From positions 40,813 through 104,812 of the IMG/VR virus record IMGVR_UViG_3300029288_000107: a DNA stretch of 64,000 nucleotides, one strand, 5' to 3'. Below, one piece after another: positions 1-61,747 of the stretch (position 1 is the first letter of the stretch; every line of letters starts with the position of its first letter). The stretch is from a virus. Lineage: Duplodnaviria > Caudoviricetes. A program made the translations under genes and the position numbers. The notes beneath the pieces are model-generated. The model did no database searches, was not told the origin of the DNA, and saw nothing but the letters and a program-made list of their open reading frames with translations.

Positions 1-720
1 GACGCGACGGCGGTGGAGGCGCTGACCGTGGAAGGGACGCTGCTGTGTTCGGTGCTGTGCGCCGACTGCGCGAGGGTGCTGAAGGCCGGGAAGTATCCCG
101 GGGTGACCATGCGCGCGGACGGGCGGCTGGAGGCGATCCCGAGCGTGCCTGCCAACGACTGCGACAAGCTGGGAGAGCACGGGTGCGGGGTGCACTGCGG
201 GCCGTGTGACTTCGACGCGGGCAACCAGGCGGACTGCCCGTACCACCAGGACAACGTGCACGCGCGTGCGTCGGAGGGGGATGTGCTTGTTGTGACGGAG
301 GCGGAGTGGAATCGCGCGGTAGCCCTCCGCGAGCGACTGGCAGCCTACGCGCACGAGGCGTGGGCGATGTGGATGCGGCACCTGAGCATGCGGCAGCGCG
401 GGACGAGTTGGCGGGGGGAGCGCGAAATCTGGGAGTTCGAAGTTGAGGACGCGAAGCGGTGGGACAGGCAGGTACGGACGACCTACGCGGAGCTGCCGGA
501 GGCCGAGAAGGCGAGCGATCGGGCGCAGGCGGACCGCATCCTGGCGATCCTGCGCGGGGCGGACACCACGGTGGCCAAGGAGGAGGCGGTGCCGTTGGCG
601 GAGCGTCCATGCATGTTCGAGGGGTGTCGCACCCGCACGCATCGGGTCGATCGGGGATACTGTCCGGCGTGCAAGGCGCGGATGAAGGCGCGCGAGGCGA
701 TCCTGCGGGGGGAGGGATGA
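1..720 (+). CDS. hypothetical phage protein, 5' truncated by window, Cys-rich
   Basis: Frame open from base 1; CxxC pairs; ends AILRGEG and overlaps next ATG. Confidence 0.7.
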   Translation, partial: DATAVEALTVEGTLLCSVLCADCARVLKAGKYPGVTMRADGRLEAIPSVPANDCDKLGEHGCGVHCGPCDFDAGNQADCPYHQDNVHARASEGDVLVVTEAEWNRAVALRERLAAYAHEAWAMWMRHLSMRQRGTSWRGEREIWEFEVEDAKRWDRQVRTTYAELPEAEKASDRAQADRILAILRGADTTVAKEEAVPLAERPCMFEGCRTRTHRVDRGYCPACKARMKAREAILRGEG

Positions 721-1040
721 TGCGGTTGTTCGACTTGCAGTTCCTGCTTGGACATCGCCTGGATCTGGTCAACCAGGTGGAGGGCGACGACGAGTTCATA
801 CACAGCGAGAAGTTCTGCGATCTGGACGAGGAGCAGCGTGCGCGGTTCGAGGGCGGCGCGCGTGGGCGACTGTTCCAGCTGCGGGAGATCGAGGCGATCG
901 ACCTGGCGCACCCGGAACAGGCGGACGCGTGGCTAGGACCACCGTGGCCCATTCGGAAGTCGCTGGAGGAACTGGCGAAGATGGACTTGCCGTCGAGTTC
1001 CAGTTGGAAGGTGCGGGCGATCCTGCGCGGGGAGGGGTGA
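717..1040 (+). CDS. hypothetical protein
   Basis: GGAGG then ATGA overlap at 717; also ends AILRGEG. Confidence 0.65.
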
Positions 1041-1330
1041 TGAACGGACGGACCATGGTGGTGATCGGTGGGGCGCACGCCGGGCAGCGGGTGGAGGATG
1101 TGGCGGGGCCGATGTTGCGCCTGGCCATGTACGCGACACCGCAGGCGATGCTCCCGGGAAGGGGGCTGCCTCCGGACACGACGGTGCGGGAGGTGGAGTA
1201 CCGGCGGGTGCGGTTGGCGGAACTGGACGTAACGCTGGAGGCATGGGTCCACCCGTCGGTGCTATCGCCGCTGCGGGAGTTGCTGGACCACTACCGGCCG
1301 ATACGTGCGGTCGTGAGCGAGGAGGGGTGA
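1040..1330 (+). CDS. hypothetical protein
   Basis: TGATG coupling with GGAGG SD; N-terminal IGGAHAG motif. Confidence 0.7.
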
Positions 1331-1332
1331 GA

Positions 1333-60972: not shown

Positions 60973-60975
60973 TCC

Positions 60976-61722
60976 ATGCTGGGACTACCGGGACGCATCG
61001 TTGAAGCCATCATGAAGGGGCCGGAGGGTCGCAAGAGCGCGACTCTCAGCATCGCTGGGGTGAGCCCGGTGGACGGCACGATCTGCATCCCGGAGCGGGC
61101 GTTCCAGTTCTGGCCCGAGAGCATCAGCGAGGAGCCGGAGATCGGCTGGCAGTTCAAAGACATCCCGGGCGCGTCGCACTCGCTTGCGCAGTGGACGCAG
61201 AACGGGGGCCGCACGTTCAGCTTCGAGGTGGTGTTCTCGCGGTTCATGCTGCCGCTGGACCAGCTCGGCACGGCGGAAAAGCTGCTGTCTCTGGGGCTGA
61301 ACAAACCGGGCAGCACGGTGCCGCGCAACAACCAGCCCATGAACGTGTCGGTGCGGGAGCAGGTGCAGTACCTGCGGCAGTTCTACCTGCCGGAGTACGT
61401 GCAGTCGGGCGAGGTGACGGTGGCGTCGCCGCCGCCCATCGCGGTGCTCTACGCGCCGAACCAGGGGTGGAACGAGGACGGGCGGGACACGATCTGGGCC
61501 GTCATGACGCAGTGCAGTGTCAACCACATGTTGGCCTTCCCGAGCGGGGAGCCGCGTCTGGCCACGGTGAGCTTGGCGTTCCGGCAGGTCATCCAGTGGC
61601 CTGCGCAGGGCGTCATCATGAAGAACCGCAAGATGTACGCGCAGGTCACGAACTTCGAGAGCGACGTGGCAACGGGTGGGGGGCGGACGATCAACAAGGT
61701 CACGGTGGACAAGGGCCCGTAA
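60976..61722 (+). CDS. tube initiator / CIS tube-like baseplate protein
   Basis: FQFWPESI, IPGASH...QW, G.PRLATV.L.F. Confidence 0.75.
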   Translation: MLGLPGRIVEAIMKGPEGRKSATLSIAGVSPVDGTICIPERAFQFWPESISEEPEIGWQFKDIPGASHSLAQWTQNGGRTFSFEVVFSRFMLPLDQLGTAEKLLSLGLNKPGSTVPRNNQPMNVSVREQVQYLRQFYLPEYVQSGEVTVASPPPIAVLYAPNQGWNEDGRDTIWAVMTQCSVNHMLAFPSGEPRLATVSLAFRQVIQWPAQGVIMKNRKMYAQVTNFESDVATGGGRTINKVTVDKGP

Positions 61723-61747
61723 ATGCACGCGCGTGCGCAGCTCGGAC

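Follow-up and report, generated by a model that had tools for sequence, protein, structure and literature searches.

Among the closest described systems, Cluster EG Microbacterium phages carry an 18-bp inverted repeat, GATCAACCNNGGTTGATC, located 14–22 bp upstream of start codons and without reported function (PMC7302621). Cluster O mycobacteriophages harbor 34 invariant 17-bp dyad repeats, TGTTCGGNNNCCGAACA, likewise without reported function, for which a dimeric DNA-binding protein was proposed by the authors (PMC4351075). The stoperators of L5 and Cluster A phages, exact 13-bp sites present by the dozen throughout a genome, occupy short gaps between genes, where they often abut stop codons, and act on elongating RNA polymerase, not at promoters (PMC4351075, PMC3203893). 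Here, we analyzed a dispersed palindrome, the 12-mer GCACGCGCGTGC, in a 64,000-nt stretch of viral DNA (Duplodnaviria; Caudoviricetes), hereafter the window, which comprises bases 40813–104812 of the 104,812-bp IMG/VR record IMGVR_UViG_3300029288_000107 (G000; 57% complete according to CheckV). The 12-mer was not found in the literature searched, and an Rfam search yielded no family matching the palindrome, the sole match being a tRNA. Our analyses revealed that this word is a clade-wide, sequence-specific signal under nucleotide-level selection, wanted about every 4–6 kb.

The initial annotation had reported 17 perfect copies in the window, all of which were recovered as exact copies of GCACGCGCGTGC between positions 258 and 61725; the whole record holds 26. 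Dinucleotide shuffles of the window contained on average 0.09 copies (maximum 1), and Markov models of orders 0–7, trained with the sites masked, predicted only 0.04–0.23 copies in G000, so that even a high-order background does not explain the count. The full 14-mer CGCACGCGCGTGCG was observed in 15 of the 17 window copies, and only four other window 14-mers lie one or two mismatches from it. One-mismatch variants of the 12-mer were found 4 times in G000 against 3.0 expected, and the half-words GCGCGTGC and GCACGCGC as well as the 10-mer core were at expectation outside the palindromes (GCGCGTGC, 22 against 16–17 expected; its reverse complement, 12 against 8–12). As half-sites and one-mismatch copies remain at chance level, selection operates on the whole palindrome, all or none, an exactness typical of operator arrays. 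The core is usually flanked by C at −1 and G at +1, followed by G and C; this symmetry extends up to ±2, and beyond the consensus flanks complementarity is at chance.

About 160 genes were placed on the plus strand of G000, with a TnpB gene as the sole exception, by a crude codon model trained only on plus-strand open reading frames (ORFs), by which alone minus-strand genes are not excludable. Within this arrangement, 13 of the 26 copies start 1–9 nt after a stop codon, and in about 20 the next start codon lies 11–29 nt past the core with a GGAGG-type Shine–Dalgarno (SD) sequence in between. The 3′ flanks are these purine-rich SD regions and hold no T-run, unlike an intrinsic terminator. The last copy of the window is the only one tied to a stop codon and not to a start codon, with a promoter-like site downstream in place of an SD. 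The palindromes occupy all three reading frames and both early and late gene regions. The earlier division of the window copies into ten intergenic and seven in-gene ones, the latter in RTRVR, HARA, and ARAC frames, was reproduced, but several of the in-gene copies merely cover the final codons of the upstream ORF. Across G000, 5–8 of the 26 copies are in-gene; four others so labeled occupy merely the last 5–10 codons of the upstream ORF. Three copies called in-gene (G000 26139, 41070, and 66092) have a strong SD and a start codon downstream and are probably junction copies missed by gene calling. For the one at G000 41070, the first of the window, this is probable because GGAGG and GTG follow it and because the alignment with a relative's homologue covers only sequence downstream of the site. 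Truly internal copies number five (G000 424, 25075, 54517, 56950, and 60278) and are mostly read in the RTRVR frame. Nested in-frame starts after in-gene copies were considered and rejected, as they are not conserved in relatives.

The gaps between consecutive window copies range from 1908 to 7408 bp. For the 26 copies of G000, the coefficient of variation (CV) of the spacing was 0.45, compared with 0.97–0.98 when positions or gene starts were drawn at random, a regularity reached in no run out of 20,000 simulations (P<5e-5). The distribution is thus more even than random, in agreement with the roughly even spacing initially noted. The spacing is also even in the relative G007 (CV 0.59, P=0.001). 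As first described, the inserted transposon-like element, here the TnpB insertion (window 25381–26706), has no copy, and the longest gap spans the baseplate and fiber genes.

Relatives were retrieved through a scan of IMG/VR with the 14-mer and 16-mer words, followed by tblastn with G000 proteins. The word scan returned mostly single chance matches, among which were many true relatives of the G000 phage. The contig L260, whose major capsid protein (MCP) is 70% identical to that of G000, carries three copies in 6.9 kb, two of which, each spelled exactly, lie in genes at places orthologous to those of G000, namely protease codon 217 (RTRVR) and the gene after the MCP gene (HARA). A more distant group, hereafter clade B, comprises G007 (168.5 kb), G008 (161 kb), G002, G011, G013, and G019, which are 86–96% identical to one another and bear MCPs about 48% identical to that of G000. 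Clade B genomes contain about 28 sites each, of the form (C)TGC-GYAYGCGCRTRC-GCA(G), spelled as GCATGCGCATGC (three TGCGCA hexamers), GCACGCGCGTGC, GTACGCGCGTAC, or hybrids of these, and 57–69% of them lie at most 32 nt upstream of an SD and start codon, against a 20% background. The 18-mer spelling of this clade is almost confined to it among the 2.9 million viral contigs scanned. Additionally, four fragments of 57–60% GC (G005, G012, G014, and G015) carry the strict 12-mer in 2–4 copies per 13–23 kb, where about 0.01 would be expected. The array is therefore conserved in related phages, from L260 through the six clade B records to these four fragments.

G007 and G008 (L127–L135 and L241–L249) are circular permutations of each other, base 65747 of G007c aligning to base 1 of G008c, which implies complete genomes that are circularly permuted or terminally redundant. 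Strictly orthologous sites between G000 and G007 were found at offset +325 of a head gene, upstream of the 889-aa gene, and in the protease gene. Many other sites are one gene junction apart in the two genomes, and a decayed copy is visible at window 20943. From these junction shifts and the decayed copy, it follows that individual sites come and go at a maintained density. At orthologous in-gene places, the encoded residues change along with the word (T/M, V/M/I). The occurrence in three frames, the change of residues under a kept word, the all-or-none copies, and the conservation across lineages of 57–70% GC together establish selection at the nucleotide level, and no peptide accounts for the sites, in line with the initial annotation.

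The word is not a general property of GC-rich DNA. A 10.4-Mb Streptomyces genome contains 7 copies, against 4 of the reversed-word control; two Ktedonobacterales genome assemblies contain none; and each of 301 Chloroflexota genomes contains at most 9. The Chloroflexota sample includes the unpublished G195, G249, and G294 (one copy each), and the rarity holds independently of them. Mimicry of a host repeat is not supported, given the rarity of the word in the bacterial genomes sampled.

Table 1. Palindrome copies in the window and the gene of the candidate reader (window coordinates; distances to starts are counted downstream)
Feature	Position	Strand	Context
Palindrome copy (G000 41070)	258..269		HARA frame, called in-gene; GGAGG and GTG 15 nt downstream
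Palindrome copy	2903..2914		2 nt after stop; AAGGA and ATG 13 nt downstream
Junction copy	5616..5627		1 nt after stop; 13 nt before start of 72-aa gene
Junction copy	8755..8766		14 nt before start of T4-type portal gene (8781-10502)
True in-gene copy (G000 54517)	13705..13716		RTRVR frame; 325 nt into 286-aa head gene
True in-gene copy (G000 56950)	16138..16149		RTRVR frame; codon 217 of prohead protease/scaffold gene; kept in L260 and clade B
True in-gene copy (G000 60278)	19466..19477		HARA frame; 187-aa gene after MCP gene; kept in L260
Decayed copy, 2 mismatches	20943..20956		Canonical junction position before 508-aa gene; relatives' copies intact nearby
Palindrome copy (G000 66092)	25280..25291		Followed by G-rich SD-like tract and GTG; just before TnpB insertion
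Junction copy	28498..28509		1 nt after stop; 16 nt before gene preceding sheath gene
Junction copy	33246..33257		16 nt before gp19-like tail tube gene
Junction copy	35694..35705		1 nt after stop; 11 nt before next start
Palindrome copy	40244..40255		ARAC frame, last codons of Arc-like ribbon-helix-helix gene; 29 nt before next gene
Palindrome copy	45848..45859		Last codons of 88-aa ORF; 16 nt before next start
Junction copy	48957..48968		14 nt before gp25-like baseplate gene
Junction copy	56365..56376		1 nt after stop; 14 nt before 625-aa gene
Junction copy	58273..58284		18 nt before 889-aa gene; clade B homologue also with upstream copy
Palindrome copy	61725..61736		2 nt after stop; 11 nt upstream of TTGACA...TATGTG promoter-like site; 58 nt to next start
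Arc-like ribbon-helix-helix gene	40097..40288	+	Pfam RHH_1, E=7e-6; PHROG Arc-like repressor; own sigma70-like promoter

The alignment of 109 sites from 11 records showed that eight core positions (1, 3, 5–8, 10, and 12) are invariant, and that the variation in clade B is restricted to positions 2, 4, 9, and 11, always as transitions. Of 47 clade B sites, 44 and 46 retain the pyrimidine or purine class at flanking positions ±3, even though about a third are unpaired there; conservation of class without pairing fits a reading of the DNA groove better than an RNA stem. The explanation that we tentatively favor, as the leading one and short of a firm conclusion, is that the palindrome represents a docking site for a sequence-specific, two-fold symmetric protein acting genome-wide. 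We favor it because of the exactness of the copies, the invariant "stem" bases, the tolerance restricted to transitions, and the class conservation at the edges without pairing, and likewise because of the indifference to frame and gene class, the even spacing combined with turnover, and the precedents of Cluster O, Cluster EG, stoperators, and KorB. In such a scheme, the 12-bp core (16 bp with the usual GC flanks) would be the recognition word, and its reader would most likely be a dimeric DNA-binding protein of the phage or the host. Selection would keep one exact site roughly every 4 kb wherever it is cheapest, which would usually be the only free space of a compact one-directional genome, from stop codon to next ribosome-binding site, and otherwise the inside of a gene in a tolerated frame. 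Sites would be gained and lost between neighboring junctions with density and even spacing kept, and the spelling would drift between lineages. The protein would read the double-stranded word, and its effect might be genome covering or protection, a block or pause of RNA polymerase, or DNA organization.

As to which protein this could be, we searched G000, at its 57% completeness, and the near-complete G007 and G008, and detected no NusG/RfaH-like or RegA protein, no gp55 (phrog_234), Sigma70_r2, or T7-type RNA polymerase, and no match to the tyrosine integrase profile (PF00589), serine recombinases and repressors not having been searched for. The ribbon-helix-helix protein encoded in the window (table 1) had been put forward initially as one possible binder with a copy in its own 3′ end; this copy is present, and the protein is Arc-like and conserved in clade B (61% over 31 aa), but nothing further ties it to the word, leaving it a candidate only. 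The dimeric genome-wide binder of the initial annotation thus persists as a plausible, leading interpretation of the sequence, but the analogies attached to it fail in their defining features: no ParB_N domain was detected in the three genomes, as a parS-like role would require, and the site is symmetric, stoperators being asymmetric and oriented, with no tyrosine integrase found in these genomes. A further interpretation, in which the word would be a self-address tag of the phage clade where a non-ParB factor loads, covering or escorting the genome or its giant one-directional transcripts, we regard as unlikely. Here, the specificity of the factor would drift with the spelling, from strict C/G in G000 to Y/R in the sister clade. 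If true, large lytic phages would possess a new layer of control spanning the whole genome, and the function long sought for the repeats of Clusters O and EG might be explained in the same way.

Several observations weigh against the symmetric DNA-binding protein. No ParB_N domain (PF02195) was found at E<=0.1 in the three genomes above, and the weak ParB_N match of a 221-aa ORF in G012 (L294, G012:16096–16296) scores 25.1 bits, slightly below the cut-off, with no homologues of this ORF found in either G000 or clade B. The two arms of the word also change together. In G007, pair 4/9 is TA in 16 sites, CG in 9, TG in 4, and CA in none (Fisher P=7e-5), and pair 2/11 gave P=0.0025, with corresponding values of 0.004 and 0.026 in G008; orthologous G007/G008 sites exhibit two compensatory double changes where 0.4 would be expected. 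Such covariation of the arms is not predicted by the independent half-sites of a homodimer. When pairs deviate from Watson–Crick at positions 2/11, they are U.G on the coding strand in nine cases and C.A in one. Furthermore, the sites are closely tied to ribosome-binding sites, and even among the eight copies first called internal, six have GGAG or GAGG at most 18 nt downstream (background 0.235, P=0.003). Covariation and the tie to ribosome-binding sites suit an RNA-level element at least as well as a DNA-level one.

These same observations carry the alternative that the word is an RNA punctuation hairpin, a 4–8 bp GC stem with an invariant GCGC loop standing between the end of one cistron and the next ribosome-binding site. 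It would act as an exonuclease block, a processing site, or an insulation of the start, and its reader would be a sequence-specific RNA-binding protein or nuclease. We consider this possible, although on balance we lean against it. The genome suits it: transcripts must be long, given that about 160 genes share one strand, that sigma70-like promoters are sparse, and that the genomes searched yielded no T7-type polymerase, gp55, or other phage sigma factor. Even spacing and the shifting between junctions would fit one hairpin per few kilobases of transcript. About 60–70% of the sites of G000, G007, and G008 lie 11–29 nt before start codons (background, 20%), and the SD-like tracts after internal copies stand on the downstream side, being present upstream of only two of the eight. 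Pairs 2/11 (CG 68, UA 12, UG 9, other 1) and 4/9 (CG 50, UA 25, UG 8, other 7) covary around an invariant center, with U.G far exceeding C.A in the former. The overall covariation score was 0.266 against 0.195 in shuffles, none of 500 being as high, a comparison to be read with the caveat that the sites are related by descent. Template switching within the palindrome, or slippage of the TGCGCA hexamer in the case of the 4/9 change, could be the source of this covariation. Against a hairpin stand the stem bases G1, A3, T10, and C12, which are invariant across lineages where pairing alone would permit change, and the loop-closing pair 4/9, at which C.A (7) is as common as U.G (8). The flank at ±3 keeps its base class and not its pairing, no covariation was seen outside the consensus, and flanks are often unpaired in the 57–60% GC lineage, where the stem is left with 4 bp. 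Shuffled controls fold as well as the junctions (z −0.9 to +1.6), and only 4 of 6 minimum-energy folds include the hairpin, folding energies being uninformative in such a GC-rich context. Copies kept midway in essential genes are awkward for a cleavage site, and Rfam holds no matching family.

The favored protein-binding role also has to be weighed against a structural one, as the strict purine–pyrimidine alternation pointed out initially as Z-DNA-prone extends for 16 bp in G000 and for 18 bp in clade B, above the 12 bp that define such a tract. In this alternative, the tract itself could flip to Z-DNA or attract a type II topoisomerase, relieving the supercoiling generated by one-directional transcription. 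The even spacing suits a topological role, and the transition-only variation preserves the alternation; nevertheless, any (CG)n or (CA)n tract would then do, yet eight positions are invariant, including two Z-disfavoring A.T pairs. In vivo, Z-DNA formation and cruciform extrusion also tend to call for longer tracts. We regard this explanation as quite improbable.

The position of the word just upstream of portal, tube, baseplate, and fiber genes, and also inside upstream genes, raises the further alternative of a phage-specific middle or late promoter, perhaps structure-dependent, like the promoters distributed along the genomes of T4 (late) and T7. In density, the word is similar to T4 late promoters, which are themselves asymmetric −10-like elements read with the gp55 sigma factor. 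The perfect symmetry of the word, however, gives no direction, only 11–20 nt are left for a start site, leader, and SD, no copy directly precedes the MCP gene, and neither gp55 nor Sigma70_r2 nor a T7-type RNA polymerase was detected in the three genomes; a promoter is accordingly very improbable in our estimation. A sigma54 −24/−12 promoter was rejected, since its GG and spacing, judged by eye, do not match. A separate family of sigma70-like promoters is present in G000, consisting of TTGACACGGCG, a spacer, and a TG-extended −10 resembling TGTTATAAT, often with an upstream A-tract, and is distinct from the palindrome. Members were found at G000 7903–32095 and at window 6655–6736, 39362–39614, 40032–40096, and 61745–61780, being common in the first 40 kb of G000 and sparse in the structural region. 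Terminators of the classic kind, a hairpin with a T-run, are represented at least once, at about G000 18441. The palindromes are separate from these promoters and from this sole classic terminator seen.

An alternative drawn from recombination is that the palindrome is a double Chi-like site, which, in a circularly permuted genome, would stop a host helicase–nuclease arriving from either side, or would seed recombination-dependent replication. The palindrome holds GCGCGTG in both orientations, and GCGCGTG is the Chi sequence of the Lactococcus and Streptococcus RexAB (PMC5959072). Even spacing and indifference to exact position would fit, as would the circular permutation of G007 and G008 and the RecA/UvsX-like, RuvC-like, and RusA-like proteins encoded by the phage. 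Opposing this, single-orientation half-sites, which would be expected of Chi, are not enriched outside the palindromes, four spellings are mixed within one clade B genome, the host is not a low-GC coccus, and only one of the breakpoints in G007/G008 homology falls within 100 nt of a site, where 2.9 would be expected. We hold this explanation to be extremely improbable. The same breakpoint count led us to reject a role in recombination junctions similar to that of promoter-early stem-loops (PeSL).

The phage itself has a GC content of 67% in G000 and a strong positive GC skew throughout. Its structural genes are of T4 type, including gp20 portal, gp21 protease, gp23 MCP, sheath, gp19 tube, and gp25 baseplate genes. 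The best match of the MCP among cultured phages is at most 30% identical, a megablast against GenBank phages gave no match, and an MCP search of IMG/VR retrieved one distant locus only; the closest MCP homologues are 83% and 75% identical. The prohead protease gene (window 15489–17129) encodes 546 aa, against the 212 aa of T4 gp21, owing to a long extension at the C terminus, possibly a fused scaffold; codon 217, where the in-gene palindrome is conserved, lies at the domain boundary. Genes for a RecA/UvsX-like protein (430 aa), a RusA-like resolvase, an exonuclease, and a RuvC-like resolvase constitute a left-end recombination set (L291:1231–2915, 3999–4922, and 5897–6397).

The TnpB gene (IS605 OrfB, with Cas12f-like TNB and helix-turn-helix domains) occupies window 25394–26605 on the minus strand, within the 1.3-kb insertion mentioned above. 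Its closest genomic relatives are in Ktedonobacterales genome assemblies (50–52% identity), which on sequence similarity may serve as a weak hint at the host. Just upstream of the insertion, an N6/N4 DNA methyltransferase (PF01555) is split over two overlapping frames, with the N-terminal part at window 24420–24785 and the C-terminal part at 24488–25039, which is either a frameshift or a pseudogene. A second over-represented word of about 24 nt, GGGGGTCCAGCCAGCCGCACGTGG, was observed in 13 copies in G000, where about 0.1 would be expected; some of these copies are in genes between window 10506 and 38593, and the word looks like a coding leader shared by unrelated proteins.

Two more distant T4-like relatives, G009 (L117–L124) and G006 (L141–L148), were rejected as carriers of the system, as they belong to a different group, their word copies are coding, and their own repeats are unrelated. 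These genomes contain about ten copies of an element of about 80 bp centered on TTAATTAA, in both orientations, together with 7–8 copies of GATTCGAATC and a coding CCTCGAGG repeat. In a viral contig of 31.6% GC (L094:12100–12420), we also found a CRISPR-like array whose repeat, CTTTCAACTC-GCACGCGCGTGC-GAAGTG, includes the palindrome as a hairpin.

Placed beside the known systems, the array is of a kind already seen, unexplained, in actinophages, here in an unrelated and uncultured T4-like clade: the copy excess, the start-proximal gaps, and the conservation that characterize the actinophage repeats are all found for the G000 palindrome. Like the Cluster EG repeat, it is an exact short inverted repeat in many copies, located in short intergenic gaps before starts and kept in diverged relatives. 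The Cluster EG repeats, however, amount to 8–10 copies at one genome end of small siphoviruses, whereas at least 26 copies are spread evenly here over the genome of a large T4-like myovirus; the sequences are unrelated, and here some copies are in-gene and arm positions covary. With Cluster O it shares palindromes spread genome-wide without linkage to promoters, about one third being coding in Cluster O, in phages that are not obviously temperate. The Cluster O repeats differ in lacking a close tie to translation starts, in their higher density toward one end of the genome, and in a variable 3-bp spacer, and their phages encode proteins with ParB-like domains, none of which was found in G000, G007, or G008. 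Stoperators are asymmetric, oriented with transcription, and serve the repressor of a temperate phage, whereas the present site is symmetric and no integrase or repressor was found (serine recombinases and repressors not having been searched for). The start-associated sequences (SAS) of Cluster K are asymmetric 13-mers that contain the SD and lie 3–7 bp from the start, in contrast to a palindrome upstream of a separate SD.

Outside the actinophages, the KorB OB operators of RK2 and ParB–parS are dispersed 13–16 bp palindromes read by dimers and acting at a distance. The present sites are similarly dispersed palindromes, and their even spacing would suit a sliding clamp, but no ParB_N domain was detected in G000, G007, or G008. 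The repetitive extragenic palindromic (REP) elements and bacterial interspersed mosaic elements (BIME) are longer, imperfect, chromosomal, and mobilized by RAYT transposases, and T4 intercistronic hairpins share a loop and not a whole sequence. The resemblance to both resides in GC-rich stem-loops just after cistrons, which can stabilize mRNA segments; unlike REP elements, the phage word is rare in all bacterial genomes sampled. Dispersed exact phage palindromes have thus been reported for a decade in actinophages without a function. To these, the present clade adds a statistically even spacing, a turnover of junctions at kept density, and a lineage-specific spelling with partial arm covariation, and several simple explanations are ruled out for it in the genomes searched, namely ParB, an RNA polymerase or sigma factor of the phage, Chi half-sites, and junctions of recombination. 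The word is also a cheap marker, as its use as a query on 2.9 million viral contigs brought up distant relatives of this phage missed by the capsid-protein search. With three spellings and near-complete genomes, this clade is well suited to a search for the reader protein or an RNA mechanism.

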